Shown here: positions 2,977 through 43,852 of the stretch, piece after piece
How the letters are laid out: each line of letters begins with the position of its first letter
Position numbering within the stretch: the first letter of the stretch is position 1
Assembly: GCA_964491475.1 (NCBI GenBank)
Contig: CAZBFO010000003.1
Span: forward strand, 253,293-317,292
Origin: an uncultured Gammaproteobacteria bacterium
GTDB taxonomy: Bacteria; Patescibacteriota; Patescibacteriia; SG8-24
Direction: 5' to 3'
DNA: 64,000 bases
The notes under the pieces: generated by a model
The model's input: the letters and a program-made list of their open reading frames with translations, nothing else
Told to the model about the DNA's origin: nothing
Databases searched by the model: none
Program-made: the position numbers and the translations under genes

Positions 2977-2978
2977 CC

Positions 2979-5768
<2,790 letters not shown>

Positions 5769-18955: not shown

Positions 18956-18985
18956 TTGGAGGTGGAAGGGGTCTTGCTCTATAAT
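18956..18985 (+). promoter_or_regulatory. candidate promoter of the giant surface-protein gene (-35 TTGGAG, 18-nt spacer, -10 TATAAT)
   Basis: TTGGAG at 18956-18961 and TATAAT at 18980-18985, about 30 nt upstream of the ATG at 19016. Confidence 0.35.
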
Positions 18986-19015
18986 AGGCGTGTACTCATT
19001 TTTCGCGCCAAGTTC

Positions 19016-22000
19016 ATGCACTTTTGGCGGAACATTTTCCGAAAGCTGCTGTCGCTTGCGATAGGCGTCAGTTTTGTGTTTTTCGGTTTGGCGTCGGCGG
19101 CGAATGCGGCTGTCGGCGTGCCGAAGATTTTGAGCCACCAGGGTCGTCTCCTGGACGCCTCGCAGAACTTGCTCGGCGGTGCGGGCACGAACTACTGTTT
19201 CCGGTTCTCGCTGTACGACGACGCCGCCGTCGGCGGTCCTGACGTCCAGCTGTGGCCGGCCGGTGCGCCGTCGACCATGACGGTCAACGTCAAGAACGGC
19301 GTCTACAACGTCGGCGTCGGTGACGTGGCCGCCGGCGGCGACCTGCTCGACTACGACTTCCAGTCCGGCGATGCCGCCTACCTGAACATCGAGGTGGCCA
19401 ACAGCGTCGCCGGTTCGTGCGTCGGCGTGATCTCGTTCGAGAACCTTTCGCCTCGCCAGCGCGTCATGTCCGCAGGCTACGCCATCAACTCCGACACCGT
19501 CGACGGTTTCCATGCCAAGCAGTCAGCTGACGGCAACTTCATCCCGGCCCTGACCTCCGGCAACCTCATTCTGGGCGCCACCAATCCGCAGATCAACTCC
19601 ACCGGTGCCAACGCGCTGGTCCTCCAGGGCGGCGCCGCGACTGGCGACGTCCAGTTCTTCTCGTCACTGAACAAGCTGACCTCGGCCGGCGACCTGACCG
19701 TGGCCGGTACGGTGACCAACGCCGGCGTGATCATCAACGGCGCGACCACCGACATCAAGACGGGAGCAAACGAGGACTTGGCTCTCGACGCCTCGGGCAC
19801 GGGCAACATCGTCTTCGTGGGCGTGGACTGCTCCGGTTACGCCAACGGCGGCAAGCTGACCACCAACGCTTCGGGCGTGGTCACTTGCGCCAACGACGAC
19901 AGCACGTCTGGCGGCGGCACGGTTACCAGCATCGATGGCAGCGGCGGCACCACCGGTCTTACGTTTAGCGGCGGTCCGGTGACCACTTCGGGCACGCTGA
20001 CGTTGGGCGGCACGCTGGGTGCGGCCAACGGCGGTACCGGTCTGACCTCTTTCACCGTCGGTGACATCCTTTACGCTTCCGGTCCCACGACCTTCTCCAA
20101 GCTTGGCATCGGCTCTGCCGGCCAGGTGTTGAAGGTGGCAGGCGGCATTCCGACCTGGGGTACGGACAACAACACTACTTATACGGCGGGTACCGGCATC
20201 TCCATCAGCCTCGGCAATGTCATCTCGAATACTGGCGTGGTTTCGGAAGCGGACACCTTGGCGACGGTCACCGGCCGCGGCGCGACCACTTCTACGGCTT
20301 CTTCCTTCAACGGCGGCGCTTCGGTGCGCGGTCTGACGGTCGACTCCGCGACCGTCACCAACGATAAGATTTTGGTCAGCATCACCACCGTCGGCGGCGC
20401 CTCTTTCAACGGCACCATTACCAACGCCGACCTTACCGCCGCTCGTACCTACACGCTGCCCGACGTCACCGGCACCTTTATCGTTACGGGATCGGCTGCA
20501 GGCGGCGATTTGACCGGCACCTATCCGAATCCGACCATCGCAGCAGATGCCGTCGCTCTCGGTACCGACACCACGGGCAACTATGTGGCGACCGTTTCGG
20601 GCGGAGGTCCCATTTCCGTGAGCGGTACGGGTGAAGGCGCGGCTGTAACGGTTTCCTGTCCGACCTGTCTGGTTACGGGCGGTTCGCTTTGGACGCTTGC
20701 GGCCTCGGCCGGTTCCGATTCGACCATCTCGCAGGGCGACACCGCGACCTTCGCTGCGGGTTCCAGCAAGGTGACCACGACGAACGACGGCGCCGGCACC
20801 GTCTCTATCGACGTGGCCGAGGCCAATTTGAACTTGAACAACATCGGCGGCAGCCTCGACCTCTCCACCCAGACCACCGGCACCATCAGCCTGACCACCC
20901 AGGTGACCGGCGTCCTGCCTATCGCCAATGGCGGCACCAACGGCTCGTCGTTCACCACCAACACGCTGACGTACTTCGACGGCACGTCGATCGTTTCTAC
21001 CGGCATCAACCCGTCGAGCGTGGTGACCACCACTAACGTCAGCTCCAATGCCGTCACCTCGGTGACCGCGGGCAATGGCCTCACGGGCGGCGGCGGACCG
21101 GGCGCGATCACCGTCCATGTCGGCGCGGGCAACGGCATCGCCGTGGCAGCCAACGACGTCTCGGTTGCCGTCACTTCCAGCGGGACCACCGCCACGACCT
21201 CGTCGAACTCCGGCATCGAGTCCACCTCCACGGGCATCCGCCTGCTGGGCGGCTGCACTGGCGGTGAGATTCTGAAGTGGAACTCCGGCACGAGCACTTG
21301 GGACTGCTCTGCGGATTCGACTGCCGGTACGCTGACCGCACGCGAAACTGACGGCTCGCCGTCACTGGCAGCCACTACTATAGAGTTTGGCCCCACCAGC
21401 AGCTCCGATGATGAATTCGTCGTCACCAATGAGGGTTCCGGCGTCGCCCGCGTGCGCACGGGCACCAAGATCCCGCGCACTGACGTCGCGGCGACAGTCA
21501 CCGGCGGCTGGACTTTCAATTCGGCAACCTCCTTTACCTCGACCGTCGACGCTTCCGGTGCGACCTTCCTCGGCGCCACGCCCCTCATCTTTGAGGGCGG
21601 CACTGTCGACGCGTTCAAGACCGCCTTCAACATCACCGATCCGACTGCATCCAACACCATCACTTTCCCTGACGCTTCCGGTACGGTGGCCGTTTCGGCT
21701 TCGGGTCCGATTTCTTTGAGCGCGGCAGGCAACATCTCCTGTCCGACCTGTCTGGTGAGCGGCAGTTCGTTGTGGACCTCTGCCGGTGACGTCGGTTCGT
21801 TTGCGGTTTCGCAGGGCGGCACCGCCACGTTCGCAGGCGGCCTCGGCATCGACACTTCCGCAGCCGGTTCTACGGTGACCATTGCGGTAGATGAATCCGC
21901 CCTCGACCTCGCCAACATCGGCGGGTTCCTGGACCTTTCGACCCAGACCACCGGCACCATCAGCCTGACCACCCAGGTCTCGGGCGTCCTCCCGATCGCC

Positions 22001-25000
22001 AACGGCGGCACCAACAACACTTCCTTCACTGCCAACCGGCTGACGTACTTCGACGGCACCAAGATCGCCTCGACCTCGATCGATCCGGCCAACGTGCTCG
22101 TCTCTGGCGGCAGCCTGTACACTTTGGCCGCCACCAGCGGTTCGAACTCCACCATCAGCCAGGGAGGCACGGCGACCATCGCTGCGGGTACCGACATCAG
22201 CACGACGGGCAACGGCAGCGGCACCGTCACGATTGCTGACACCTCGACGCTCTCGAGCGTAACCGGCCGCGGTGCCTCGACCTCGACCGCCGTCTCCCTG
22301 AACGGCGGCGCCACGGTCCGCGGCCTGACGGTCGACTCGGCCACGGCCACCGAGGACCGCATCCTCACGAGCATCGCCGCCACCGGAGCGGCCCGCTTCG
22401 ACGGCACGATCACCAACGCCGACCTGACCGCAGCCCGCACCTGGACGCTCCCGAACGCCAGCGGCACCTTCGCGGTGTCGGCTTCCGCGCCCATCTCGCT
22501 CTCGGCGGCGGGCAACGTCTCCTGCCCGACCTGCCTCACTTCCGGCAGCACCGTGTTCACCCTCGCCGCCACCTCCGGCAGCAGCCAGGCGCTCGCCTCC
22601 GGCGACACCATCACCATCGCGGCCGGCTCCAACGTTACCACCACGGCCGGAGCGACCGACACCGTCACCGTCGCGGTCGTCAGCAACCCCACCTTCACCA
22701 CGGTGACCGCCACCGACGTCGACAACGCCGCCACGTTGAACCTCGGGGCCAGCTCGACCACCGTCAACATCGGCAATCCCTCTTCCACCACCAACATTTA
22801 CGGCACGCTCTCGCTCGCCGGCGACTTCGCGCCGTCGGTCGACAACACCTACGAGCTCGGCACCGCCAGTCTCCGCTGGAAGGACGTCTGGGTCGGACCC
22901 GGCTCGTACAAGCTGTCCTCGACCGCCGGAAACTCCGGTTCGGGCACGGACTACACGCTTGGCAGCCTGTCGTTCAGCGGTACCGACTTGGTGCTCAAGT
23001 CTGACGTCGTCGGTTTGGGTACGCAAGGCTCGCTCCGTCTCACCACGGCCAGCAACTACGGTGTCGTCGTCGGTCCTTCTGGCGAGGTGTCGGTCGGTTT
23101 CGGCGGCAGCAACCTCGGTGCGGGCATCGTCCACACCGACGCTTTCGGCGTGCTCTCAAGCTCGGCGCTCGACCTTACCGCTGAAGTTGGCACCAGCGTC
23201 CTGCCGATCGCCAACGGCGGCACCAACAACACTTCCTTCACGGCCAACCGCCTGACCTACTTTGACGGCACCAAGATCGCTTCGACGACCATTAATCCGG
23301 CCAACGTCTTGCTCTCCGGCGGAAGCCTGTTCACTGCTGCAGCGACATCGGGCTCCAATTCGACCATCTTGCAGGGCGGCACGCTGACGCTCGCCGCAGG
23401 CACCGACATCAGCACGACGGGCAGCGGCTCGGGTACGGTCACGGTCGCCGACACCTCGACCCTGGCCAGCGTCACCGGCCGCGGCGCGACCACTTCCACT
23501 GCCATTACCCTGACTGGCGGCGCGACCATTTCGGGCGGCGTCGACCTTAGCAGCGCCATCTTGGCCGGCACCAACCCATTGGTGTTCGATGGCACTACCG
23601 TCGATGCCAACACGACCGCGCTGTCGTTCGTGGATCCGACCGGCACCAACGTCATCACCTTCCCTGACGCCTCCGGTTACGTGCTGCTTTCGGGCGGAAA
23701 TCTGTTCACGCTGGCCGGTTCCTCTGGCAGCAACTCCACCATCAATCAGGGCGGCACCGCGACCGTCGCCGGTGCTTCCGGCCGCGTTTCCGCCACCGGT
23801 AACGGCAGCGGCACCGTTACCATCGACGTCATCGAGTCCGGTTTGAGCTTGGCCAGCATGGGCGGGTCGCTCGATCTGACCACCCAGGTCTCGGGCGTCC
23901 TGCCGATTGCCAACGGCGGCAGCAACAGCTCCGGTCCGTTCGTCACCGGTGAGCTGCTTTCCTTTGACGGGTCATCGTTCGTCTCCTCGGGCATTTCTGC
24001 GGCCAGCGTCGTCACCTCCGGCACGGCGGCCGGCGGCGACCTTACGGGCTTCTACCCGAACCCGACGGTTGCCGCGAATGCCGTCGCTCTCGGCACGGAC
24101 ACCACCGGTAACTACGTCGCCACCGTTGCCGGTTCCGGCCCGATTTCCGTCGCCGGCTCCGGCGGTGAGAGCGCCAACGTGACCGTTTCCTGCCCGACCT
24201 GCGTCACCACCTCCAGCAGCAACGTTTGGACGCTGTCCGGATCCACCGGTACTTCGACGGCCATCGGCTACGGCGACACCGCCACGGTCGCGGCCGGCTC
24301 CTCCAAGGTCTCTTCGGTCGGCGACGGTGCCGGATCGGTAGCCATCGACGTCGTCGAGGCCAACTTGAACCTCAACAACATCGGCGGCTCGCTGGACCTC
24401 TCCACCCAGACCACCGGCCAGATCGACCTGACCACCCAGGTTACCGGTGTGCTTCCGATTGCCAACGGCGGTACCAATAACACCGGTTTCACCACCAACC
24501 GCCTGGTGTACTTCGACGGTTCGCAGCTGACCTCTACCTCCATCAATCCCACCGATGTCCTTCTGTCCGGCGGCAGCCTCTTCTCAACGGCCGGCAATTC
24601 TGGCACCTCGACCATCTCGCAGGGCGGCACGCTCTCGATTCTCGGCGGCACCGACGTCACTACCACCGACGACGGTTCCGGCAACATCACCGTCGATGAC
24701 ACCTCGACCCTGGCTAGCGTCACCGGCCGCGGCTCGTCGACTTCGACCGCCGTCTCCCTGAACGGCGGCGCCTCGGTCCGCGGACTGACGGTCGACGACG
24801 TCACCGCCACGCACGACCGCATCCTGACCAGCATCGCCGCCACCGGAGCGGTCCGCTTCGACGGCACGATCACCAACGCCGACCTGACCGCAGCCCGCAC
24901 CTGGACGCTCCCGAACGCCAGCGGCACCTTCGCGGTGTCCGCCAGCGCTCCCATCTCGCTCTCGGCAGCCGGCAACATTTCCTGCAGCACCTGTCTCGTC

Positions 25001-28000
25001 TCCGGCGGCAGCCTCTTCAGCAGCCTCGGCGACACCGGTACTTCGTCCATTTCGCAGGGCGGCTCGCTGAAGATCGCCGGCGGCAGCAACATCACCACGT
25101 CCGACAACGGTGCTGGCATCATCACCGTGGCCACGTCGGCGAATCCGAGCTTCACCTCGGTCACTTCCGACACCTTCGACAGCTCCAGCACCACCCTGAA
25201 CCTCGGCCCGACCAACGCCACCACCATCAACATCGGCAACGGCGGATCGACCACCAACATCTTCGGCACGTTGGTGCTCGACGGCGGCTTCAACCCCGCA
25301 GTCGACAACACCTATGACCTCGGTTCCCCGGCGCTTCGCTGGAAGACCGTGTACGTCGGTCCCGGCTCGTATCATCTGACCTCGACCACCGGCACTTCCG
25401 GTTCCGGTGCCAACTACACCGACGGCTCGCTGGCGTTCGGAGGAACCAACCTGAAGCTCGCTACCGCCGCGGTCGGCACCGGCGCGATCGGTTCGTTGCA
25501 GCTCACGACCGGCAGCAACGCCGGGGTGAACGTCGACTCCACGGGCAAGGTCGGCGTCGGTACCGCCTCTCCGACTGCTCTCCTGTCCGTCGGTTCCGCC
25601 TCCGACTTCACCGTTGACAACTCCGGTAACGTCACCGCCTCTGGCGACGCGGCAGTGAACGGCGGCAATCTCACCACGACCGCCTCGACCGGCAATCTTT
25701 TCAGCACCAATGCGACCACCGTCAACCTCGGTGACGCCGCCGATACCGTGAACCTCGCGGGCGGCAGCGGCTCGACCGGTTGTACCATCGATCTCAACGG
25801 TAACTTCAGCTGCACGGGTTCGGTTACCGGCGGCGGCACCGTCGGCGGTTCCGGAGCGCAGTACCACACTGCGGTCTGGGCATCCGCCAACACCCTTGCC
25901 GACGTAGGTCCCGGCACTGCGGGTCAGCTGCTGATTTCCCAGGGCGGTTCGGCCTATCCGGCCTACACCACGGTATCCGGCGACGCGACCATTAACGGAT
26001 CCGGCGTGCTCACCATTTCCGCGAATGCCGTCGCCCTCGGCACCGACACCACCGGCAACTACGTTGCCAGCGTGTCCGCCACCGGGCCGATCTCGATTTC
26101 TGGCACGCCCGGCGAAGGTTGGACTCCCAACGTCTCCTGCCCGACCTGCGTGACCACCAGCAGCACCGGCGTCTGGACCCTGTCCGGCTCCACCGGCTCC
26201 AGCACCTCCATCAACTACGGCGACACCGCCACCGTCGCGGCCGGCTCCTCCAAGGTCTCCGCCGTCGGTAGCGGCACCGGATCGGTGGCCATCGACGTCG
26301 TCGAGGCCAACCTGAACCTCAACAGCATCGGCGGCTCGCTCGACCTGTCGACGCAGACCACCGGTTTCCTTAGCCTCACCACCCAGGTCACCGGCGTCCT
26401 GCCGATCGCCAACGGCGGCACCAACAACACTTCCTTCACGACCAACCGGCTGACGTACTTCGACGGCACCAAGATCGCGTCTACCGCCATCGATCCTTCG
26501 ACGGTGCTGGTTTCCGGCAGCGCGCTGTTCAACTCTGCCGGCGACACGGGCACGTCGAGCGTTTCGCAGGGCGATACGCTTACCTTTGTGGGCGGCACCG
26601 ACGTTTCGACTGCGGATGACGGCGCGCGCAACGTCACCATCAACGACATCTCGACGCTCGCCACGGTCACCGGCCGCGGCGCGACCACTTCTACGGCCGT
26701 CACGTTGACCGGCGGCGCCACCGTCCGCGGCCTGACGGTCGACTCCTCGACGGCCACCAACGACAAGATACTCACCTCCATCACCACTGTCGGCGCAGCG
26801 TCGTTCAATGGCACGATCACCAACGCCGACCTGACCGCCGCCCGCACCTGGACGCTCCCGAACGCGAGCGGCACCTTCGCGGTGTCGGCCTCGGCGCCGA
26901 TCTCGCTCTCGGCCGCGGGCAACATCAGCTGTTCGACCTGCGTCACGACCGGCGGATCGCTGTTCACGCTGGCGGGCTCGACGGGCAGCAACTCGACCAT
27001 CAGCCAGGGCGGCACGGCCACGATCGCCGCGGGCTCGAGCAAGGTGACCGCCGCGGGCAACGGCACGGGCACCGTCTCGATTGACGTCGTCGAGGCCAAC
27101 CTGAACCTCAACAACATCGGCGGCTCGCTCGACCTTTCTACCCAGACCACCGGCACCATCGACCTGACCACCCAGGTCTCGGGCGTCCTCCCGATCGCCA
27201 ACGGCGGCTCCAATGCCGACGGCACCGGCTACACCGCCAACCGCCTCCTGGCCTTCGATGGCACCAGCTTCGTGACCACTTCCATCAACCCCGCCAACGT
27301 CCTGCTCTCCGGCGGCAGCCTCTTCACCAGCCAGGGCGACAGCGGCAGCTCGACCATCAGCCAGGGCGGCACGCTCAAGGTGGCCGGCGGTACTGACGTC
27401 ACGACCTCCGACAGCGGTTCCGGCGTGATTACGGTCAACGACTCTTCGACCCTGGCCAGCGTGACCGGCCGCGGCGCGTCGACCTCCACCGCCTCGTCCT
27501 TCAACGGCGGCGCCACAGTCCGCGGCCTGACGGTCGACTCCGCCACGGCCACCGAGGACCGCATCCTGACAAGCGTCGCCGCCACCGGCGCCGCCCGCTT
27601 CGACGGCACCATCACCAACGCCGACCTGACCGCAGCCCGCACCTGGACGCTCCCGAACGCCAGCGGCACCTTCGCGGTGTCGGCCAGCGCTCCCATTGCG
27701 CTCTCGGCCGCCGGCAACATCAGCTGTTCGACCTGCGTCACCACCGCCACCACGCTCTTCAACTTCGCAGGTACCTCCGGCTCGGCCTCGACCATCACCT
27801 CGGGCGGCACCGCCACCGTCACCGCCGGCACCAACATGACCACCACCGGCAGCGGCGGCTCGGGTTCCGGCGCCGTCACCGTCGCGGTCGTCGCCAACCC
27901 CAGTTTCACCTCGGTCACCTCCGACACCTTCGACAGCTCTTCGACCACCCTGAACCTCGGCCCGACCAACGCCACCACCATCAACATCGGCAACGGCGGA

Positions 28001-31000
28001 TCGACCACCAACATCTACGGCACCCTCTCTCTTGCCGGCGACTTCAGCCCGTCGGTCGACAATACCTACGAGCTCGGCGCCGAGCAGCTCCGCTGGAAGG
28101 ACGTCTGGGTCGGACCCGGCTCGTACAAGCTGTCCTCGACCACCGGCACCTCCGGCTCCGGCACGGACTACACCCTCGGCAGCCTGTCGTTCGGCGGCAC
28201 CAACATGGTCCTGAAGACCGAGGCGGTCGGCGCGGGCGTAACCGGCAGCGTCCAGGTCACCACCGGTTCCAACGTCGGCCTGAACGTCGACTCGACCGGC
28301 AAGGTCGGCATCAACACCGCTTCTCCGTCGGCCGCCTTCGCTGTCGGCACTGGTTCGCCGTTCACCGTCGACAACTCCGGCAACGTCATCACTTCGGGCA
28401 ACGCCACCGTCAACGGTGACACCGCGCTCGGCGACGCCGCAACCGACGGCATCACCCTAACCGGCGAGGTTCGCGGCGCCAGCCCGATTCGCTTCGAGGG
28501 CGCCACCAACGACAACACCTACACGACTATCGCCGTGGTCGATCCGACCGCCTCGCGCACCATCAATCTGCCCAATGCCAGCGGCACCTTCGCCGTGTCG
28601 GCCAGCGCCCCGTTGTCTTTGAGCGCGGCCGGCAACCTGACCTGCAGCACCTGCGTCACCACCAGCAGCACCGGCGTCTGGACCCTGGCCGGCTCCACCG
28701 GCTCCAGCACCTCCATCAACTACGGCGACACCGCCACCGTCGCGGCCGGATCCTCCAAGGTCTCCGCGGTCGGCAGCGGCTCCGGATCGGTGGCCATCGA
28801 CGTCGTCGAGGCCAACCTGAACCTCGCCAACATCGGCGGCTCGCTTGACCTGACCACCCAGGTCACGGGTGTGCTTCCGATCGCCAACGGCGGCACCAAC
28901 AACACTTCCTTCACGACCAACCGGCTGACGTACTTCGACGGCACGTCCATCGCTTCGACGACCATCAATCCCTCGAACGTCCTGCTTTCCGGCGGCAGCC
29001 TCTTCACCGCCGCAGCCACGTCGGGCTCGAGCTCGACCATCTCGCAGGGCGGCACGCTGACCCTTGCGGCTGGCACCGACATTTCCACGACCGGCAACGG
29101 CTCCGGAACCGTCACTGTCGCCGACACCTCGACGCTTGCCACGGTCACCGGCCGCGGCGCAACCACTTCCACTGCGGTCTCGCTGACCGGAGGCGCCACC
29201 GTTCGCGGCGAGACTATCGACACCGCCACCGCAACTGACGACCTTATCGCGGTTTCCGTGACGGCCGGCGGCGCGGCCCGCTTTACCGGCACCGTCACCA
29301 ACGCCGACCTGACCGCCGCCCGCACCTGGACGCTCCCGAACGCCAGCGGCACCTTCGCGGTGTCGGCCAGCGCGCCGATCACCTTGAGTGCGGCAGGCGA
29401 TATCGGCTGTTCGACCTGCCTTACCACCGGCAGCAACATCTTCACGCTGGCCGGCACCTCTGGCTCGAATCAGACGCTTACCAACGGCGACACCATCACC
29501 ATCGCTGCGGGTACCAACATCACCACCACCGGCGGCGCCACCGACACCGTCACCGTGGCCACCGTCGCCAACCCGACCTTCAGCACCTCGGTAACCACGC
29601 CCTCGGTCGATAACGGCGCCTCTGGCATTACCATCGGTTCTGGATCGGGTACCACGACCATCACTTCGTCCAACTGGGGCGTGAGCTCGGCCGGCGCGAT
29701 TTCCGGCCTGACGGGCATCTCCAGCTCCGGCACCGTCACCCTCACCGGCCTGACCGCCAGCCGCTTCGTGACCACCGACGGCTCCTCGAACCTCACGACC
29801 TCGCAGAACTCCGCCGCCCTCTCCGCGACCCTCACCGACGAGACCGGCTCCGGCGCGGCCGTCTTCGGCACCAGCCCGGCCATCACCACCAGCCTGACCA
29901 CCGGATCGGCCAGCTTCGACCTCCTGAACGCCACGGCCACCACCGTCAACTTCGCCGGCGCGGCCACCACGCTGGCCATCGGCGCCGCGACCGGCACCGC
30001 CACCGTCAACAACGCCACGGTGACCCTCGCCAACGCCACCACCGTCAACGTCAACGGCGCCTCGCCGAGCATCGTCACCAGCTCGGCCGGCACCGCCAGC
30101 GTCTTCAACACCAACGCCACCACGCTCAACATGGGCGGCGCGGCCACCACCGTGGCGATCGGCGTCGCGGGAGCCTCCGGCACCATGAACCTCATGGGCG
30201 GCTCCGGCTCCACCGGCTGCACCGTCGACGGCTCCAACGGCAACTTGGCCTGCAGCGGCACAATCACCAGCACCGCCACCTCCGGCAACATCGGCTGGTG
30301 GAACCGCACCGGCACGACCCTTTCGCCCAGCAACTCGGGCGACAACGTCACCACCAGCGGCAACGTCAGCACGACCGGCTCCGGCACCATCACCTCGGCA
30401 GCCTTGCTGACCGCCTCCAACGGCTTCACCCAGACCACCGGCGCAACCAACGTCACCGGCACCTCCGGCTCGATCGCGCTGACCGGCTTCGGTTCCACCT
30501 CCATCACTTCCACCAACAGCGGCAGCAACGCCTTCAGCCTGTCCGACTCCGCGCTCACGACCGCCTCGCTGGCTTCGCTCACGTCGACCAACAACTCGGC
30601 CGCGAATACCGCCTGGTCCGCGGACGTCTTCAACGTCACCAACGCGCAGGGCACCACGGCCGTCAGCACCGGCAGCATCGCCGGCGTCGACGTCCAGTTC
30701 ACGCAAGGCACGACCGTTGCCGGCAACAACGACACCGCGCTGCGCGTGAACCTGGCGCAGAACAATTCGTCGTCGACTGACGCGACCTTGAGCTCGCTGG
30801 TCTCGCTGGCCAACAACGACACCGCCACCGGCAACCAGATCACCGTCACCGACGGCCTGAACATCGCCGGGGCCAACGTCACCAACGGCATCAACCTGTC
30901 GGGCACCTTCGGCACCAACCTGATCACCAGCTCCAACTTCAGCGTGACCCAGGCCGGCCTCGTCACCACCGCCGACGACATCGCCGTGAACGGCGCCGAC

Positions 31001-34000
31001 GTCACCACCACTTCCTCCGGCACCGCCACGCTCTTCAACACCAACGCCACCACGCTGAACGCGGGCGGCGCGGCCACCACGGTCAATGTCGGCATCGCCG
31101 GAGCCAGCGGCACCATGGCCCTGATGGGCGGCTCCGGCTCCACCGGCTGCACCGTCGACGGATCGAACGGCAACTTCACTTGCTCCGGCACAATCACCAG
31201 CACCGCCACCTCCGGCAACCTCGGCTGGTGGAACCGCACGGGCACGACGCTCTCGCCGGTCAACGCCGGCGACAACGTCACCACCACAGGCAACGTCAGC
31301 ACGACCAGCTCGGGCACTATCACTTCGGCCGGTACTTTGACGGCCAGCAACGGCTTCACCCAGACCACCGGAGCCACCAGCGTCACCGGCACCTCCGGCT
31401 CGATCGCGCTCACCGGCTTCGGTTCCACCGCGATCACCAGCACCACCGCCACGGGCAACGTCTTCAACCTTGCTGACACCAGCCTGACCACCGGCACCGG
31501 CTTCCGCTCGGCCACCACCAGCACCGCCACCACCAATACGGCCTTCTCGGCCAACGTCTTCGCGGCCACCTTCGCCCAGGCGACGGCAGCCAACACCTCC
31601 GGCGTCAACGGCCTCGACGTGCAGTGGACCCAGAACCCGACCGTCGCCGGCAACACCAATGAGTCGATGCTGCGCCTGCAGAACCAGCTCGTGAACAGCA
31701 CCACCGACACCAGCGTGGCCAACGGCCTGCTGATCGACAACGCAGACACTTCGGCCACCGGTTCGACGGCCATCACCAACGCCATCAACATCTCCCAGTC
31801 CGGCGGCCTCGCCACGACCGCGGCGTACACCAACTACCTGAACGCCACCAACTGGTCGGTGACCAGCGCGGGCGCGGAGACGCTCGCCTCCGACCTGGCG
31901 GTGAACGGCGGCAACCTCACCTCGTCCGCCACCACCTTCAACCTGCTCAACTCGGGCGTCACCACGCTGAACGAGGGCGGCGCTGCCACCACCGTGGCGA
32001 TCGGCATCGCGGGAGCTTCCGGCACCATGGACCTGATGGGCGGCAGCGGCAGCACCGGCTGCACGATCAACGGCTCCAACGGCAACCTGACCTGCAGCGG
32101 CACCATTTCCGGCACTTTCGCCGTGAAGTGGAGCGACCTGCAGAACCCGACGGCCAACGAGTCGCTGGCGATGGGCGCCAACACTTCGACCTTCACCTAT
32201 AACGCCACCACCGGCGCCGGCGTCAACCTCTACACCCTGGTCGACACCGCCTCGAACACCGGCACCGGCTACATCCTGTCGGCAGAAACGGCGGCCAGCT
32301 CGGCGGCCAAGCCGTTCCGGGTCGTCGCTCGCGCCAACACCATCATCGACACCACCTCCACCGGAGGCGTGACCATCGGTAACGCCACCGCAGCGCAGGC
32401 CGTGACCGTCGACGCGGGCACTGCCACGCTCAACTTCGGCAACTCCAACAACGCCAGGGCCATCAACATCGGCACCGGCACCGCCGTGGACACCATCCAC
32501 ATCGGCGACGGCGGCACGGGCGCCGACGTCATCACCATCGGTTCGAACGTCGCCGGACAGACTTTGGCGCTCGACGCCGGCACCGGCGCCGCGGCCATCA
32601 CCATCGGCAACAGCGCCACCGCCCATGGCATCCAGATCGGCACCGGCGCTGCCGTCCAGACCATCTCGATCGGCTCGACCAATTCGACCTCGGCCACCAC
32701 CGTCAGCGCCGGATCGGGCAACTTGGCCCTGACCGCCACCTCCGGCGGCGTCAACCTGTCGACGACCACCAGCGGCACCATCAACTTCCAGCCGCTCGGC
32801 TCGGGCACCACCGGCATCGTTCAGGTGGGCGCGGGCGGCGCAGGTTCCACCACGCCTGACCTCCTGGCTGTCGACGTGAAGTCGAACGCCGGCGACCCGG
32901 CCACCACCCAGAACGGCTACATGTACTACAACGGCAGCACCAACAAGTTCCGCTGCTACGAGAACGGCGCCTGGAAGGACTGCGACACCAACACCGGTTC
33001 CGCGCCGCGCCTCGACCAGATCATCGCCGCGACCGCCGCCAACACCATCGCCAACGCCAACTTCGCCCAGACTTGGAACTGGGGCACGCTCACGACCCAG
33101 ACCGCCATGACCTTCGGCGGCGGCTCGGCCATGACCACGGGCTCGGTGTTCAACTTGAGCGGCGGCACCTACGTTCACACCGGCACTGTCACCGAGACCG
33201 GCAGCTTGGCCACCTTGAACGTGACCGACTCTTCCTCAAATACGGGCGGCAACCCGGTGACCAACGGCCTGCTGATCACGCCGACGTTCAGCACTACTGC
33301 CAGCGCCGGCACCAAGGTGCTTAACGGCCTCAAGGTCGATCCGACCCTGACCTCCTGCGGTACCACCGCTGGCACCTGCACCTTGAGCGACATCGTGGCC
33401 AACACGCCGGCGCTGACGCAGACCACCACCAACACGATGAACATCAACGCCCTGCAGCTGCCGACGGCGGGCGCGCTGGTGCAGAACACGGCGGCCGGCA
33501 CCATCAACTGGAACGGCCTGACCATGCAGATGCCGAACATCACCCAGACCACCGGCACGGTCACCTCGACCGGCGTGAAGGTCACTGGCGGCACGGTCAC
33601 CTCCGGCACCTCGTATGCCTTCGTTTCGGACAGCAACGCCGGCAACGTAGGCGTCGGCACGCTTACGCCGACGCGCACTTTGGACGTGAACGGCAACATG
33701 GGCGGCAGTTCCGTCACTAGCGCCCAATCGCTGACCAGCACGCAGACGGTGACCGTCTCGACCAAGGCGGTGGCCTTCTACCTGTCCGAAGACTCCACCA
33801 CCACGAACTCCGACGTCGACATCACCTTCAATCTGACCGGCCTGCCCGACGTGGACGGCACCTACGCCTTCTTCTACCTGTCGGCCAAGAAGGGCGTGAC
33901 CACCAACGCGCACCTCACCACCGTCGATGTCAGCATCAACGGCAACGCCATCACCAACGCCCTGGTGAAGAGCTCCACCGCGACCGTCGCCTCGACCATC

Positions 34001-35683
34001 GACCGCAATTTCACCCTCGTCCGCATGAACGGCGCCTGGAGGCTCATCGGTTCGAGCGGCGACGGCACCGGCGGCGTCGGCTCCGGTTCGATTATCAAGT
34101 ACAAGTCCGCTGACCAAAGCAGCGTCACCACGACGCTGGCCAATGACTCCGACATGTTCTGGAACATCGGCGCCAACGAGAACTGGTCGGGATTCTTCGC
34201 TGTCCAAGTATTCTCCAACTCGAACAGCCCTGACTTGAACGTCGCCATCACCGCCCCGTCCGGCGCGACTTGCGACATGAGCTACACGCTTCTGAATACG
34301 CCCTCATCCGGAGCGCAGGCCAATCTGGGTTGCGGCACGCGCTCCGCGCAGATCGCTCTCGGCGCCAACACCGAAAACATCCTCTTCATCAGCGCCAACA
34401 TCAGCAACGGCAGTACTGCCGGCTCGGTCAACCTGCAGTTCTCGCAGGACACCGTTGACGCCACCCATGCGACCATCTTCCGACAGGGTTCCTACACCAA
34501 CGCCTTCCGCTCCACCGGCGCGGACGTCGCCGAAGCCTATTACACCGCCGACAGCAGCATGAATGCCGGCGACGTGGTCGCGCTCGATCCGTCGTTCCGC
34601 GCCGGCGTCCGCAAGACCGCCTCGGCCTACGATGCCGGAACCCTCGGCGTCATCACTAGCATGCCCGGACTGGCGCTTAGCGATCCGCTGCGTCCGCAAC
34701 CGGCCGGTACCCGCACCGTCTTCATGGCCCTTAACGGCCGCGTGCCGGTGAAGGTCAGCGACGAGAGCGGCCCGATTGCCGCCGGTGACTTCCTTGCCGC
34801 GTCTTCGACGCCCGGCGTGGCCATGAAGGCCGCCAAGGCCGGACCGGTCATCGGTCGCGCCCTCACGGACTGGGCCGGCACCGGTACGGGAAGCGTCGAC
34901 ATGATCATCTCGCCCGCGCAGCAGAACGCCATCGTGACGCGCGCTGCCGACCCGACCAAGACCGCCGACCAGATCAACTCGGACATCCTGGCCGCCGTTT
35001 CCGCGCAGACCTACGCGCCCGACCAGAGCACCACCGAGCTGAACGTCGACCGCGTGGTCGCCGGCCTGTCAATCATCTCCGACAAGGGCATCTTCAACGG
35101 CCTGACGGTCGACTCCATCGGTTCGCTGCATGACGCCATCACCCTGGCCTCGGATGCGGTCTTCATCGGCCGCCCGTACTTCAACAGCGACACTGCCGGC
35201 TTTGCGGTCATCACCCCCGGCGACAGCAGCGTCAACGTGACCTTCGACAAGCCCTACGAGACGACTCCCGTGGTCAGCGCCACCTTGTCCTTCGACGGCG
35301 ACGCGCCGAGCGACTGGCAGAACATCCGCTACGTGGTCACCGACAAGTCGGTCAACGGCTTCACCATCCGGATGTACCAGCCGATCGGCCAGGACGTGAA
35401 GTTCAGCTGGATCGCGCTGGCGGTAAAGGACGCGCGCACCGCAAAGTCGACTGGCACGACCGCTTCAGTCAGCGTGCCTGCTCCGAGCGGCACGCCGGCG
35501 GGGGATACGGGCACCGGCGACTCCGGCTCGTTCTCCTCGACGACGACCTCTGACGCAGCTCCTTCGAGCGATGCTTCGTCGTCCGATGCCGGCGCGGCGA
35601 GCGCGCCGGCAGATACGGGCGCCGCTGCGCCCACGTCCGATGCTCCTGCATCCGACGCGTCTGCGCCGAGCGCGACCAACTGA
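19016..35683 (+). CDS. giant secreted repeat protein (about 5,555 aa) with tail-fibre-like Thr/Ser/Gly beta repeats and a C-terminal H-type-lectin-like module
   Basis: Single uninterrupted 16.7-kb reading frame. Signal peptide MHFWRNIFRKLLSLAIGVSFVFFGLASAANA. Dozens of reiterated modules: …LDLSTQTTG.I.LTTQV(S/T)GVLPIANGGTNN…, …ADLTAARTWTLPNASGTFAVSASAPISLSAAGNISC(S/P)TC…, …TGRGA(S/T)TSTA…GGATVRGLTVDSATAT…ILTSIA…. A module NP(S/T)FT.VT…NIGN…T(T)NI(Y/F)GTL.L.G.F.P.VDNTY(E/D)LG…LRWKDVWVGPGSYKLSSTTG recurs three times. The C-terminal part contains NGYMYYNGSTNKFRCYENGAWKDC and ends with VNVTFDKPYETTPVVSATLSFDGD…NGFTIRMYQPIG…SWIALAV followed by an acidic Ala/Ser/Pro-rich tail. Confidence 0.85.
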   Translation: MHFWRNIFRKLLSLAIGVSFVFFGLASAANAAVGVPKILSHQGRLLDASQNLLGGAGTNYCFRFSLYDDAAVGGPDVQLWPAGAPSTMTVNVKNGVYNVGVGDVAAGGDLLDYDFQSGDAAYLNIEVANSVAGSCVGVISFENLSPRQRVMSAGYAINSDTVDGFHAKQSADGNFIPALTSGNLILGATNPQINSTGANALVLQGGAATGDVQFFSSLNKLTSAGDLTVAGTVTNAGVIINGATTDIKTGANEDLALDASGTGNIVFVGVDCSGYANGGKLTTNASGVVTCANDDSTSGGGTVTSIDGSGGTTGLTFSGGPVTTSGTLTLGGTLGAANGGTGLTSFTVGDILYASGPTTFSKLGIGSAGQVLKVAGGIPTWGTDNNTTYTAGTGISISLGNVISNTGVVSEADTLATVTGRGATTSTASSFNGGASVRGLTVDSATVTNDKILVSITTVGGASFNGTITNADLTAARTYTLPDVTGTFIVTGSAAGGDLTGTYPNPTIAADAVALGTDTTGNYVATVSGGGPISVSGTGEGAAVTVSCPTCLVTGGSLWTLAASAGSDSTISQGDTATFAAGSSKVTTTNDGAGTVSIDVAEANLNLNNIGGSLDLSTQTTGTISLTTQVTGVLPIANGGTNGSSFTTNTLTYFDGTSIVSTGINPSSVVTTTNVSSNAVTSVTAGNGLTGGGGPGAITVHVGAGNGIAVAANDVSVAVTSSGTTATTSSNSGIESTSTGIRLLGGCTGGEILKWNSGTSTWDCSADSTAGTLTARETDGSPSLAATTIEFGPTSSSDDEFVVTNEGSGVARVRTGTKIPRTDVAATVTGGWTFNSATSFTSTVDASGATFLGATPLIFEGGTVDAFKTAFNITDPTASNTITFPDASGTVAVSASGPISLSAAGNISCPTCLVSGSSLWTSAGDVGSFAVSQGGTATFAGGLGIDTSAAGSTVTIAVDESALDLANIGGFLDLSTQTTGTISLTTQVSGVLPIANGGTNNTSFTANRLTYFDGTKIASTSIDPANVLVSGGSLYTLAATSGSNSTISQGGTATIAAGTDISTTGNGSGTVTIADTSTLSSVTGRGASTSTAVSLNGGATVRGLTVDSATATEDRILTSIAATGAARFDGTITNADLTAARTWTLPNASGTFAVSASAPISLSAAGNVSCPTCLTSGSTVFTLAATSGSSQALASGDTITIAAGSNVTTTAGATDTVTVAVVSNPTFTTVTATDVDNAATLNLGASSTTVNIGNPSSTTNIYGTLSLAGDFAPSVDNTYELGTASLRWKDVWVGPGSYKLSSTAGNSGSGTDYTLGSLSFSGTDLVLKSDVVGLGTQGSLRLTTASNYGVVVGPSGEVSVGFGGSNLGAGIVHTDAFGVLSSSALDLTAEVGTSVLPIANGGTNNTSFTANRLTYFDGTKIASTTINPANVLLSGGSLFTAAATSGSNSTILQGGTLTLAAGTDISTTGSGSGTVTVADTSTLASVTGRGATTSTAITLTGGATISGGVDLSSAILAGTNPLVFDGTTVDANTTALSFVDPTGTNVITFPDASGYVLLSGGNLFTLAGSSGSNSTINQGGTATVAGASGRVSATGNGSGTVTIDVIESGLSLASMGGSLDLTTQVSGVLPIANGGSNSSGPFVTGELLSFDGSSFVSSGISAASVVTSGTAAGGDLTGFYPNPTVAANAVALGTDTTGNYVATVAGSGPISVAGSGGESANVTVSCPTCVTTSSSNVWTLSGSTGTSTAIGYGDTATVAAGSSKVSSVGDGAGSVAIDVVEANLNLNNIGGSLDLSTQTTGQIDLTTQVTGVLPIANGGTNNTGFTTNRLVYFDGSQLTSTSINPTDVLLSGGSLFSTAGNSGTSTISQGGTLSILGGTDVTTTDDGSGNITVDDTSTLASVTGRGSSTSTAVSLNGGASVRGLTVDDVTATHDRILTSIAATGAVRFDGTITNADLTAARTWTLPNASGTFAVSASAPISLSAAGNISCSTCLVSGGSLFSSLGDTGTSSISQGGSLKIAGGSNITTSDNGAGIITVATSANPSFTSVTSDTFDSSSTTLNLGPTNATTINIGNGGSTTNIFGTLVLDGGFNPAVDNTYDLGSPALRWKTVYVGPGSYHLTSTTGTSGSGANYTDGSLAFGGTNLKLATAAVGTGAIGSLQLTTGSNAGVNVDSTGKVGVGTASPTALLSVGSASDFTVDNSGNVTASGDAAVNGGNLTTTASTGNLFSTNATTVNLGDAADTVNLAGGSGSTGCTIDLNGNFSCTGSVTGGGTVGGSGAQYHTAVWASANTLADVGPGTAGQLLISQGGSAYPAYTTVSGDATINGSGVLTISANAVALGTDTTGNYVASVSATGPISISGTPGEGWTPNVSCPTCVTTSSTGVWTLSGSTGSSTSINYGDTATVAAGSSKVSAVGSGTGSVAIDVVEANLNLNSIGGSLDLSTQTTGFLSLTTQVTGVLPIANGGTNNTSFTTNRLTYFDGTKIASTAIDPSTVLVSGSALFNSAGDTGTSSVSQGDTLTFVGGTDVSTADDGARNVTINDISTLATVTGRGATTSTAVTLTGGATVRGLTVDSSTATNDKILTSITTVGAASFNGTITNADLTAARTWTLPNASGTFAVSASAPISLSAAGNISCSTCVTTGGSLFTLAGSTGSNSTISQGGTATIAAGSSKVTAAGNGTGTVSIDVVEANLNLNNIGGSLDLSTQTTGTIDLTTQVSGVLPIANGGSNADGTGYTANRLLAFDGTSFVTTSINPANVLLSGGSLFTSQGDSGSSTISQGGTLKVAGGTDVTTSDSGSGVITVNDSSTLASVTGRGASTSTASSFNGGATVRGLTVDSATATEDRILTSVAATGAARFDGTITNADLTAARTWTLPNASGTFAVSASAPIALSAAGNISCSTCVTTATTLFNFAGTSGSASTITSGGTATVTAGTNMTTTGSGGSGSGAVTVAVVANPSFTSVTSDTFDSSSTTLNLGPTNATTINIGNGGSTTNIYGTLSLAGDFSPSVDNTYELGAEQLRWKDVWVGPGSYKLSSTTGTSGSGTDYTLGSLSFGGTNMVLKTEAVGAGVTGSVQVTTGSNVGLNVDSTGKVGINTASPSAAFAVGTGSPFTVDNSGNVITSGNATVNGDTALGDAATDGITLTGEVRGASPIRFEGATNDNTYTTIAVVDPTASRTINLPNASGTFAVSASAPLSLSAAGNLTCSTCVTTSSTGVWTLAGSTGSSTSINYGDTATVAAGSSKVSAVGSGSGSVAIDVVEANLNLANIGGSLDLTTQVTGVLPIANGGTNNTSFTTNRLTYFDGTSIASTTINPSNVLLSGGSLFTAAATSGSSSTISQGGTLTLAAGTDISTTGNGSGTVTVADTSTLATVTGRGATTSTAVSLTGGATVRGETIDTATATDDLIAVSVTAGGAARFTGTVTNADLTAARTWTLPNASGTFAVSASAPITLSAAGDIGCSTCLTTGSNIFTLAGTSGSNQTLTNGDTITIAAGTNITTTGGATDTVTVATVANPTFSTSVTTPSVDNGASGITIGSGSGTTTITSSNWGVSSAGAISGLTGISSSGTVTLTGLTASRFVTTDGSSNLTTSQNSAALSATLTDETGSGAAVFGTSPAITTSLTTGSASFDLLNATATTVNFAGAATTLAIGAATGTATVNNATVTLANATTVNVNGASPSIVTSSAGTASVFNTNATTLNMGGAATTVAIGVAGASGTMNLMGGSGSTGCTVDGSNGNLACSGTITSTATSGNIGWWNRTGTTLSPSNSGDNVTTSGNVSTTGSGTITSAALLTASNGFTQTTGATNVTGTSGSIALTGFGSTSITSTNSGSNAFSLSDSALTTASLASLTSTNNSAANTAWSADVFNVTNAQGTTAVSTGSIAGVDVQFTQGTTVAGNNDTALRVNLAQNNSSSTDATLSSLVSLANNDTATGNQITVTDGLNIAGANVTNGINLSGTFGTNLITSSNFSVTQAGLVTTADDIAVNGADVTTTSSGTATLFNTNATTLNAGGAATTVNVGIAGASGTMALMGGSGSTGCTVDGSNGNFTCSGTITSTATSGNLGWWNRTGTTLSPVNAGDNVTTTGNVSTTSSGTITSAGTLTASNGFTQTTGATSVTGTSGSIALTGFGSTAITSTTATGNVFNLADTSLTTGTGFRSATTSTATTNTAFSANVFAATFAQATAANTSGVNGLDVQWTQNPTVAGNTNESMLRLQNQLVNSTTDTSVANGLLIDNADTSATGSTAITNAINISQSGGLATTAAYTNYLNATNWSVTSAGAETLASDLAVNGGNLTSSATTFNLLNSGVTTLNEGGAATTVAIGIAGASGTMDLMGGSGSTGCTINGSNGNLTCSGTISGTFAVKWSDLQNPTANESLAMGANTSTFTYNATTGAGVNLYTLVDTASNTGTGYILSAETAASSAAKPFRVVARANTIIDTTSTGGVTIGNATAAQAVTVDAGTATLNFGNSNNARAINIGTGTAVDTIHIGDGGTGADVITIGSNVAGQTLALDAGTGAAAITIGNSATAHGIQIGTGAAVQTISIGSTNSTSATTVSAGSGNLALTATSGGVNLSTTTSGTINFQPLGSGTTGIVQVGAGGAGSTTPDLLAVDVKSNAGDPATTQNGYMYYNGSTNKFRCYENGAWKDCDTNTGSAPRLDQIIAATAANTIANANFAQTWNWGTLTTQTAMTFGGGSAMTTGSVFNLSGGTYVHTGTVTETGSLATLNVTDSSSNTGGNPVTNGLLITPTFSTTASAGTKVLNGLKVDPTLTSCGTTAGTCTLSDIVANTPALTQTTTNTMNINALQLPTAGALVQNTAAGTINWNGLTMQMPNITQTTGTVTSTGVKVTGGTVTSGTSYAFVSDSNAGNVGVGTLTPTRTLDVNGNMGGSSVTSAQSLTSTQTVTVSTKAVAFYLSEDSTTTNSDVDITFNLTGLPDVDGTYAFFYLSAKKGVTTNAHLTTVDVSINGNAITNALVKSSTATVASTIDRNFTLVRMNGAWRLIGSSGDGTGGVGSGSIIKYKSADQSSVTTTLANDSDMFWNIGANENWSGFFAVQVFSNSNSPDLNVAITAPSGATCDMSYTLLNTPSSGAQANLGCGTRSAQIALGANTENILFISANISNGSTAGSVNLQFSQDTVDATHATIFRQGSYTNAFRSTGADVAEAYYTADSSMNAGDVVALDPSFRAGVRKTASAYDAGTLGVITSMPGLALSDPLRPQPAGTRTVFMALNGRVPVKVSDESGPIAAGDFLAASSTPGVAMKAAKAGPVIGRALTDWAGTGTGSVDMIISPAQQNAIVTRAADPTKTADQINSDILAAVSAQTYAPDQSTTELNVDRVVAGLSIISDKGIFNGLTVDSIGSLHDAITLASDAVFIGRPYFNSDTAGFAVITPGDSSVNVTFDKPYETTPVVSATLSFDGDAPSDWQNIRYVVTDKSVNGFTIRMYQPIGQDVKFSWIALAVKDARTAKSTGTTASVSVPAPSGTPAGDTGTGDSGSFSSTTTSDAAPSSDASSSDAGAASAPADTGAAAPTSDAPASDASAPSATN
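22680..29650 (+). repeat. mosaic coding super-repeats (about 2.5-2.8 kb units built from shorter ~0.6-0.7 kb modules) within the giant gene, with long near-identical DNA stretches
   Basis: For example, 25150-25270 and 27905-28025 are almost identical (…CACCTCGGTCAC(T/C)TCCGACACCTTCGACAGCTC…ACCATCAACATCGGCAACGGCGGATCGACCACCAACATCT…). GCCGACCTGACCGCAGCCCGCACCTGGACGCTCCCGAACGCCAGCGGCACCTTCGCGGTGTCG recurs at about 22425, 24885, 26826, 27625 and 29305. Boundaries are approximate. Confidence 0.6.
30110..32100 (+). repeat. second coding repeat family (three ~0.9-kb units) within the giant gene
   Basis: ATTLN.GGAATTV.IG.AGASGTM.LMGGSGSTGCT(V/I)DGSNGN..CSGTI recurs at about 30115, 31045 and 31955 with identical DNA cores (GGCGGCTCCGGCTCCACCGGCTGCACCGTCGACGG). 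Boundaries are approximate. Confidence 0.55.
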
Positions 35684-35733: not shown

Positions 35734-36162
35734 ATGCTGAAACGTATGAAATCGGTCCTCAAGTACCTCGGGGCGAGCGCGGTCATCCTTCTCCTTGCCG
35801 GTTCGCTGGCCGAAAATGCGCTGCAGTACGGGCAAATCAAGGCGCTCAAGTCCGATCCGGCCTACACGGCCTCGAAGGAAACCGCGTCGCTCATCGCCGC
35901 TGTCGGCCGCCTGATGGTCCTGCCGGACGAGACGCCGACCATCGCCACGGTCGACGACATGGACAAGCTGAAGGGTCAGGCGTTCTTCGCCAACGCCAAG
36001 AAAGGGGACAAGGTGCTGATCTTCACGAACGCCAAGAAGGCCGTGCTGTACGACCCCGTAGCCGACAAGATCGTCGAGTCGGCGCCGCTCTCCGCCGCCA
36101 GCGCCCCGGCATCGGATGACTCGACCAAGACGGATACCTCCCAAAAAGACACTTCGCAGTAA
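35734..36162 (+). CDS. hypothetical small secreted/membrane-anchored protein
   Basis: 142 aa, starting about 50 nt after the giant-gene stop. N-terminal signal/anchor MLKRMKSVLKYLGASAVILLLAGSLA. Ends in an acidic, Ser/Thr-rich tail. Confidence 0.5.
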   Translation: MLKRMKSVLKYLGASAVILLLAGSLAENALQYGQIKALKSDPAYTASKETASLIAAVGRLMVLPDETPTIATVDDMDKLKGQAFFANAKKGDKVLIFTNAKKAVLYDPVADKIVESAPLSAASAPASDDSTKTDTSQKDTSQ

Positions 36163-43763: not shown

Positions 43764-43820
43764 GGGGATGCGGTTAAGAGATTCGTGGTCAGTATAGCAG
43801 TTTTTCCCGATGCCATGGGC

Positions 43821-43848
43821 AAAAAAAGCCCCCGTTATGCACGGGGGC
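43821..43848 (-). terminator. intrinsic terminator downstream of the minus-strand serine protease gene
   Basis: The minus strand reads GCCCCCGT-GCATA-ACGGGGGC followed by TTTTTTT (revcomp of 43821-43848). Confidence 0.45.
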
Positions 43849-43852
43849 GGTG

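Follow-up and report, generated by a model that had tools for sequence, protein, structure and literature searches.

A predicted self-cleaving chaperone and an H-type-lectin fold at the C-terminus of a giant surface-fibre protein from Patescibacteria

A candidate maturation cassette at the end of a giant secreted protein

A window of 64,000 nucleotides (nt) from an uncultured bacterium of the Patescibacteria (contig CAZBFO010000003.1 of assembly GCA_964491475.1) carries the gene for a giant secreted fibre protein, whose C-terminal region is the subject of this work. We propose, at a probability of roughly 0.5, that the last ~385 residues of this protein (nt 34523-35680) make up a cassette for trimerisation and maturation at the C-terminus of a trimeric surface fibre from Patescibacteria (candidate phyla radiation, CPR). 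The domain order is a knob resembling tumor necrosis factor (TNF), an internal chaperone of the Peptidase_G2 type, an H-type-lectin fold and a low-complexity tail. As far as we could find, this is a new arrangement of known domains that is widespread in Patescibacteria, and our literature searches returned no description of it. The features of the region are listed below. Residue numbers such as Asp5221 are counted from the GTG codon at 18863, ct numbers refer to the last 960 residues of the protein (ct1 = nt 32801), and model confidence is given as the predicted local distance difference test (pLDDT).

19016..35683, plus strand: giant secreted fibre protein (open reading frame scan, signal-peptide and repeat analysis)
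34088..34522, plus strand: TNF-like jelly-roll knob, ct ~430-574, with the conserved cysteine pair C5137/C5157 (model, homologues)
34520..34534, plus strand: predicted autocleavage site Ala5220/Asp5221-Val-Ala-Glu5224 (alignment to phi29 gp12 D4 and Dpo31 D4; PMC13317679)
From 34523, plus strand: sequence from the predicted new N-terminus at Asp5221, DVAEAYYTADSS... (predicted cut)
34523..35014, plus strand: G2-type intramolecular chaperone similar to phi29 gp12 D4 (family profile, model, Foldseek)
35015..35155, plus strand: linker with a conserved DRVVAGLSIISDKGIFNGLTVDSIGSL motif, modelled at low confidence (alignment, model)
35156..35440, plus strand: H-type-lectin-fold domain, six predicted strands, pLDDT >90 (Pfam, model, profile)
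35453..35680, plus strand: acidic low-complexity tail of 76 residues rich in Ala, Ser, Thr, Gly, Pro and Asp (composition)

A G2-type chaperone with an intact D-x-A-E motif

The domain that opens the cassette has the size of the D4 domain of the phi29 appendage protein gp12 (~164 residues in total). An AlphaFold model of the cassette built with 31 sequences (mean pLDDT 81) exceeds a pLDDT of 90 over both the G2-type and the lectin-fold domains and divides the former into a beta part (ct 576-703, pLDDT >90) followed by helices (ct 709-738). The domain starts at the motif G-A/D-V-A-E, and D-x-A-E is invariant in the homologue alignment (A1). The Asp and Glu of this motif are reported as the catalytic pair in the gp12 literature and MEROPS. 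A cut before this Asp would leave a predicted new C-terminus ...QGSYTNAFRSTGA and a predicted new N-terminus DVAEAYYTADSSMNAGDVVALDPSFR.

Profile and fold comparisons both lead to phage fibre chaperones. The profile of the cassette family matches phi29 gp12 D4 from its residue 1 (3gqh, E=5.4e-5), with DFAEYF opposite DVAEAYY, and it also matches D4 of Dpo31 (28nb, E=0.006), whose DYAEYF aligns to the motif. Foldseek searches of the Protein Data Bank (PDB) with the G2 part of the model retrieved pre-mature gp12 (3suc, E=5.5e-3, 188 columns) as well as phage cement and decoration proteins. Matches to BFVD phage proteins, some of them annotated as 'Preneck appendage protein', were stronger (E~1e-10 to 4e-10, with a root-mean-square deviation of 2.3-2.8 A over ~135 residues). 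Furthermore, three of nine close homologues match the Pfam family Peptidase_G2 (PF11962; best 1e-7), and the family members P0072, P0032 and P0110 do so above the cut-off.

In gp12 and Dpo31, D4 is trimeric, aids trimerisation of the fibre and is cut off at this same Asp once the trimer has folded (PMC3357383, PMC4690869, PMC13317679). As in the giant protein, D4 of these proteins (3gqh, 3suc; 28nb) is a domain of ~164 residues that starts with D-x-A-E directly after the last fibre domain. The giant protein differs from them in that the chaperone is followed by a linker, a lectin fold and a tail, and in that Ala, not Ser, precedes the Asp. It is also a Sec-exported cellular protein, with no adenosine triphosphate (ATP) where it folds.

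A TNF-like knob directly before the predicted cut

The knob (~145 residues) lies directly N-terminal of D-V-A-E, the position at which phage fibres put their receptor-binding domain, immediately upstream of the removable chaperone. The same junction recurs in relatives: in P0116 and P0117 the knob runs directly into G-A-D-L-A-E, and in P0001 the stretch aligned to the knob ends ...G-A directly before the G2-like domain of that protein. A word-index homologue search with the knob region added two new proteins only. The knob model is of moderate confidence (pLDDT ~80 for the domain, 65 overall), and its best Foldseek match is the TNF-like Photorhabdus lectin PLTL (9ib7, E=2.7e-4, probability 1.0), followed by 4-1BBL, 8ke9, 8okw and 9eul. 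These matches share only ~10% identity, so the likeness to such trimeric tip and ligand-binding domains, namely PLTL, the Bdellovibrio tip protein Bd2734 (8okw), the binding domain of the cyanophage A-1(L) short tail fibre and the phi812 knob (phage entries 8ke9, 9eul), is one of fold only. In our proposal, the mature fibre ends distally in the knob as its covalent tip, and the knob is the likely determinant of specificity.

An H-type-lectin fold in which the HPA sugar contacts appear not to be conserved

From its sequence core, the preliminary description of this DNA had likened the final folded unit to H-type lectins, and the resemblance holds. The Pfam model H_lectin (PF09458) matches nt 35231-35416, a span that takes in nearly all of VNVTFDKPYETTPVVSATLSFDGD (nt 35228-35299); SWIALAV ends at nt 35428. 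Against a curated gathering cut-off of 24 bits, the score is 27.6 bits (E=3.2e-6) for the domain alone, 25.4 for a piece of 227 residues, 24.6 for 331 residues and 21.6, below the cut-off, within a fragment of 1,027 residues. No other family competes for this region. Ten of 29 homologous domains match H_lectin (E<=1e-3) and none matches another family. The whole-cassette profile reaches discoidin II at E=0.0067 and SLL-2 and Helix pomatia agglutinin (HPA) at 0.06-0.1, whereas a lectin-only profile reaches HPA and discoidin II in the PDB more weakly (E=0.14-0.25). The modelled domain is a beta-sandwich, and its Foldseek matches include SLL-2 (3wmp, E=5.8e-3, TMt 0.54), HPA (2ccv/2cgy), HAA (4q56) and discoidin II (2vm9), all at a probability of ~1.0. 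Also retrieved were the ends of pyocin fibres (6cl6, 6ct8) and of the Pam1, LKA1 and Sf6 tailspikes (7eea, 4ru4, 2vbm).

A chance resemblance of a generic beta-sandwich to H_lectin could explain a Pfam score that is borderline and depends on context (21.6-27.6 bits), the weakness of the lectin-only profile and TM-scores of ~0.5. We consider this very improbable given the Pfam E-value, the lack of a competing family, the hits of ten of 29 homologues to H_lectin, the discoidin II match of the cassette profile, the six strands and the presence of four H-type lectins among the best fold matches at probability 1.0. Because the Pfam, homologue, profile and fold matches agree, we accept both the fold and the family assignment despite the borderline score. 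Like HPA and HAA, the C-terminal domain of discoidin I/II and SLL-2, the domain is a six-stranded beta-sandwich with an F..P.V / GF / SW(I)A core. It differs from them in a conserved extra N-terminal strand (GRPYFNxDTAG) and in a loop, beta3-beta4, that is hypervariable in length across the family of the giant protein. H-type lectins are obligate trimers. By analogy, the D4-like and TNF-like neighbours of the domain and the collagen repeats of the relatives P0018 and P0032 suggest that it too is trimeric.

The sugar contacts of HPA are less well matched. The residues of HPA that contact N-acetylgalactosamine (GalNAc) are Asp26, Arg63, Trp83, His84 and Tyr89. In a hidden Markov model (HMM) alignment to HPA, Pro and Ile stand opposite Trp83 and His84, and Tyr89 lies opposite a gap of three residues. 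The Arg in NIRYVV is not a conserved residue of the family, and it stands 10 residues before the GF motif, against 12 for the Arg of HPA and discoidin II; the part of HPA with Asp26 lies N-terminal of the aligned region. At the level of sequence, the comparison thus leans negative.

A precedent for the fold in another role is CofB, the minor pilin of the type IVb pilus of enterotoxigenic Escherichia coli (ETEC), which does not bind GalNAc, holds a peptide in its groove and initiates assembly as a trimer (PMC6048534). By this analogy, the fold need not bind sugar. CofB resembles the giant protein in being part of a bacterial fibre that ends in a trimeric domain of H-type-lectin fold; it differs in binding a peptide of the secreted protein CofJ, in being part of a pilin and in having no autoproteolytic domain upstream (PMC6048534). 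The same small beta-sandwich is also found at the extreme C-terminus of other trimeric fibres, namely as the 'foot' of R-type pyocin fibres (6cl6, 6ct8) and at the end of the tailspikes of Sf6, LKA1 (gp49) and Pam1. Unlike the arrangement in the giant protein, these end domains stay in the mature fibre and have no self-cleaving chaperone before them.

A tail without an anchor

The 76 residues after the lectin fold run up to the stop codon at 35681-35683 and comprise mainly A19 S18 T11 G8 P8 D8, with no K, R or E. The preliminary description rightly called this tail acidic and of low complexity; its further suggestion of a sorting or wall-spanning segment found no support, as the tail has no LPXTG motif, hydrophobic segment or basic end and no match in NCBIfam. 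We therefore rejected a sortase/LPXTG signal, a membrane anchor and a known wall-binding domain as unsupported identities of the tail. In homologues, what follows the lectin-fold domain is rich in Pro, Thr, Ser and Glu, with a median of 98 residues. The Ala/Ser/Thr/Asp tail looks like a high-G+C version of these tails.

The chaperone and the lectin fold are paired across Patescibacteria

An exhaustive search with the lectin-only profile recovered 3,146 cluster representatives at E<=1e-3, 328 of them at <=1e-30. All named relatives carrying the lectin-fold domain are Patescibacteria, and in every case the domain lies ~100-250 residues from the C-terminus; the largest of these proteins has 5,555 residues. 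We surveyed what precedes the domain in the 137 new entries among the top 150 representatives; 90 of these entries were assessable because they had at least 330 residues upstream. A G2-like domain precedes the lectin fold in 82 of these 90 proteins and S74-type features take its place in three, for a total of 85 with either chaperone type. The remaining five, such as P0125 with its 5,555 residues, have neither. Of 83 G2-like domains that were aligned, 77 (~93%) keep the motif D-x-[AG]-E, and the Asp is usually preceded by Ala.

The distance from the end of the G2 domain to the lectin fold ranges from 40 to 477 residues in homologues. In the giant protein, the lectin domain lies ~210 residues downstream of the chaperone with its intact D-x-A-E. 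Many G2-like relatives end straight after the G2 domain, which makes the lectin fold an optional add-on to the chaperone. P0031 has a Pfam Peptidase_S74 domain instead of G2 before the same lectin-fold end.

The survey also brought out several variants. In P0006 and P0137, D-L-A-E is replaced by (S)LAQIF and (S)FAQIF, respectively, and the lectin-fold end is retained; judged by their motifs, these are apparently non-cleaving versions of the cassette. P0085 (510 residues) has a G2-like domain followed by a Pfam Peptidase_S74 domain, an unusual tandem of two types of self-cleaving chaperone. P0018 and P0032 run from collagen triple-helix repeats through Peptidase_G2 to the lectin-fold end, an architecture which implies that the cassette caps collagen-like as well as beta-structured fibres.

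A model of fibre maturation and its rivals

Four independent features argue for a trimeric fibre. Three are domains of the giant protein whose known counterparts form trimers, namely D4 domains, H-type lectins and TNF-like knobs; the fourth is the presence of collagen repeats in P0018 and P0032. In the maturation model that we favour, the cassettes of three chains would associate after Sec export, and the resulting trimer would set the register of the chains and nucleate folding of the ~5,200-residue shaft from its C-terminal end. Cleavage by the Asp/Glu pair would follow, at the bond that joins Ala5220 to Asp5221. It would leave the knob as the distal, covalently attached end of the mature fibre and turn the lectin-fold trimer, together with its tail, into a cap that is either shed or held non-covalently. 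The order of the domains, the conservation of the motif, the pairing of lectin fold and chaperone, the place of the knob and the lack of a C-terminal anchor are results shown here; the cut and the later fate of the cap are inferred. A broader form of this model, which we put forward tentatively, is that Patescibacteria have a widespread and undescribed device for extracellular fibre maturation. It would combine a self-cleaving G2 (sometimes S74) chaperone of phage origin with an H-lectin-fold trimer and a Pro/Thr/Ser-rich tail to register three Sec-exported chains, mask the receptor-binding knob and detach as a cap without ATP. Such a cap might be released in soluble form, as a trimeric lectin-like factor, or might serve as a second binding head held non-covalently.

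Several observations count against the maturation model. To our knowledge, the chaperone is the very last domain in G2 and S74 fibres; here ~220 residues (linker, lectin fold and tail) remain after it, so it does not stand at the extreme C-terminus. Release of D4 in phi29 reportedly needs ATP, which is absent outside the cell, and a cleaved cap might thus stay bound. The link of the giant protein to D4 is one that needs profile or fold comparison: its own sequence is missed by the Pfam Peptidase_G2 model (no match at E<=1), and a phmmer search of the PDB with its G2 region alone found no D4 structure. The knob, on which the model places the distal tip, is modelled with only moderate confidence. 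Both the hypervariable loop of the lectin fold and the wide range of its spacing from the chaperone fit a functional module on display better than disposable packaging. Furthermore, the lectin-fold end must stay on the mature protein in the five of 90 relatives that have no chaperone domain.

For these reasons (the residues after the chaperone, the variable spacing, the hypervariable loop, the five relatives and the reported need for ATP), a retained tip is a serious rival, though we rate it as less likely than the maturation model. Under this alternative, the G2 domain does not cut, or the cut cassette stays bound, and the H-type-lectin-fold domain stays as the distal ligand-binding tip, with a glycan or a CofB-like peptide on a host or partner cell as its ligand. 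The domain does pass the H_lectin cut-off and shares its fold with HPA, discoidin II and SLL-2, as well as with the ends of R-type pyocin fibres and several tailspikes and with the tip of the ETEC type IVb pilus (CofB, PMC6048534). Lectin-fold proteins with no chaperone domain (P0125) and G2-like domains that have lost the motif (P0006, P0137) point in the same direction, the latter because they suggest that non-cleaving versions exist. Set against this, an intact D-x-A-E, found in this protein as in ~93% of relatives, speaks for selection on cleavage. The lectin-fold domain is spread over unrelated shafts in 3,146 clusters, the pattern of a generic module and not of one for specificity, and it is the knob that is the rare and variable part. 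The HPA contacts do not appear to be conserved (Pro and Ile stand at W83 and H84, Y89 is deleted and the R63 position has no conserved Arg), and the CofB fold shows that sugar binding is not required. The preliminary description had made the lectin fold the carbohydrate-binding tip of the fibre, by analogy with the distal domain of a tail fibre. The tail-fibre analogy is apt. The role assigned to the lectin fold is doubtful because of the predicted self-cleavage domain ~210 residues upstream, a pairing shared by 85 of 90 relatives, and it is further weakened by the position of the knob before the predicted cut, by HPA contacts that do not appear conserved and by the CofB precedent (PMC6048534). 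We consider the domain more likely to be a removable, trimer-forming end-cap than a sugar-binding tip.

An improbable alternative places the lectin fold and tail at the cell-proximal end as a non-covalent anchor in the cell wall, from which the G2 domain would free the fibre in the way of the MYRF ICA domain. Pro/Thr/Ser-rich tails are typical wall-spanning spacers, the tail is kept across the family and the next sizeable downstream gene encodes three PG_binding_1 domains. MYRF itself offers a precedent for an internal chaperone between an N-terminal trimer and a C-terminal anchor (PMC3742440, PMC3742443). In MYRF and Dictyostelium MrfA, as predicted for the giant protein, the cut of an internal chaperone separates an N-terminal trimer from a C-terminal remainder. 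Unlike the giant protein, they are eukaryotic and intracellular, their chaperone is of the S74 type and the remainder is a membrane anchor. The giant protein has no LPXTG, transmembrane segment or other anchor at this end and no match to a known wall-binding family there in Pfam or NCBIfam. Moreover, with an anchor of this kind, cleavage in ~93% of the family would shed the fibre, and the conserved N-terminal ~200 residues shared with P0125 are an equally good candidate for the proximal end.

The giant protein upstream of the cassette

The open reading frame (ORF) that encodes the giant protein (18863-35683, plus strand) is open from the GTG at 18863; translation probably begins at the ATG at 19016 (M52), for a protein of 5,555 residues. 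The strings quoted in the preliminary description were all recovered in this frame at the places given for them. A signal peptide with a hydrophobic core at residues ~58-80, ending ...ASAANA/AV, is the sole hydrophobic segment of the entire protein (19-residue windows, mean Kyte-Doolittle >1.8). The ~200 residues after it (19037-19636, residues ~59-258; AVGVPKILSHQGRLLDASQNLLGG...YCFRFSLYDDA...) are 58% identical to the N-terminus of P0125. That protein, also of 5,555 residues, is unrelated in the middle and shares with the giant protein both its N-terminus and its C-terminal lectin-fold end. From these comparisons, the variable shaft of the giant protein seems to be flanked by a generic module at either end, and the module at the N-terminus may serve for attachment at the cell-proximal end.

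When the protein was compared with itself in windows of 100 residues (E<=1e-3), internal repeats were confined to residues ~401-4420, and no window from residue 4501 on had an internal match. The last 960 residues likewise have no significant similarity to the first 4,646 (best E=1.6). Thus, the switch from repeats to unique sequence noted in the preliminary description is real and starts a little upstream of the position 32800 given there, at about nt 32120-32360, which makes the last ~1,100 residues unique. The shaft repeats (~20063-32120) are large, with copies 60-88% identical. They hold ten C[PS]TC motifs in the recurring context ...PNASGTFAVSASAPISLSAAGNISC[PS]TC... as well as GCTxDGSNGNxxC motifs, of which there are three to four, a pattern that hints at disulfides set at regular intervals in the shaft. 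A Pfam scan of the ~4,600 residues outside the C-terminal region identified no significant family.

BLAST comparisons with homologues show the C-terminal region to be modular. The block ct 565-883 aligns across many otherwise unrelated proteins, and three further segments lie upstream of the knob:

32783..32983, plus strand: conserved junction motif ...VQVGAGGAGSTTPDLLAVDVKSNAGDP...NGYMYYNGSTNKFRCYENGAWKDC, with the cysteine pair C4698/C4707 (BLAST against homologues)
32984..33697, plus strand: unique beta-rich shaft segment, ct 62-299, with the cysteine pair C4832/C4839, ending in a VGVGTLTPTRTLDVNG motif (BLAST)
33698..34060, plus strand: first beta-sandwich domain, ct ~300-420 (low-confidence model)

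The junction motif spans ~65 residues and ends with YYNGSTNKFRCYENGAWKDC (nt 32924-32983). Its consensus, ...VQ[IV]GAGGAGSTTPDLLxLDVKSxxGDPxGxNGAMYYNxxxNKFRCYENGxWxDC, contains the YYN for which we named it. About two dozen other fibre proteins have copies that are 50-78% identical, some of them two or three, and immediately 3' of the motif the sequences of these proteins diverge completely. On this pattern of conservation, the motif seems to mark the point at which a conserved shaft gives way to exchangeable distal modules. It corresponds to no Pfam family, its profile has no significant match in the PDB and Pfam scans of the proteins that carry it were uninformative. The shaft segment that follows shares about 50-64% identity with parts of several other fibre proteins, and the first beta-sandwich domain has few homologues (P0001, P0005). 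Searches of NCBIfam and PHROGs with the C-terminal 1,027 residues returned no match.

Genomic setting

The window is cellular DNA of about 64% G+C with ordinary housekeeping genes. For the C-terminal region, the nearest relatives belong to Candidatus Harrisonbacteria, Saccharibacteria, Uhrbacteria, Minisyncoccia and unclassified Patescibacteria. A search for related loci with this single protein recovered three Patescibacteria loci in genome contigs and none in viral contigs. Directly downstream of the fibre gene are a small ORF (35734-36162, plus strand) with an N-terminal hydrophobic segment and a gene (36172-38691, plus strand) for a protein of 839 residues with three PG_binding_1 domains and a weak fn3 match. 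These two could encode a wall-associated partner of the fibre.

We also identified antisense ORFs of up to 1,573 residues inside the giant gene (e.g., 28457-33178, minus strand). These are most likely artefacts of composition, given the 64-68% G+C and the many homologues of the plus-strand product. Gene calls on an identical public contig place two tandem PDZ/Peptidase_S41 (CtpB-like) proteases at 13928-15199 and 15310-16560 (both minus strand); the plus-strand ORFs that overlap them have no Pfam match and are probably spurious. An ORF of 1,237 residues at 40143-43856 (minus strand) has only a weak Fn3-like match and may encode another large surface protein.

Implications for episymbiont surface fibres

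The Patescibacteria are mostly uncultured episymbionts whose attachment to hosts is poorly understood, and large surface fibres are prime candidates for this role. The present analysis gives the distal end of one such fibre a concrete and testable anatomy, with a predicted Ala/Asp-Val-Ala-Glu cut and a TNF-like knob as the probable determinant of specificity. It also documents the reuse of phage fibre-assembly modules in cellular surface proteins, and it cautions that a lectin fold at a C-terminus should not be read as a sugar-binding tip when an autoproteolytic chaperone lies upstream. If the cassette is indeed part of a general maturation device, the maturation and host-attachment chemistry of thousands of fibres from uncultured episymbionts would become directly testable.

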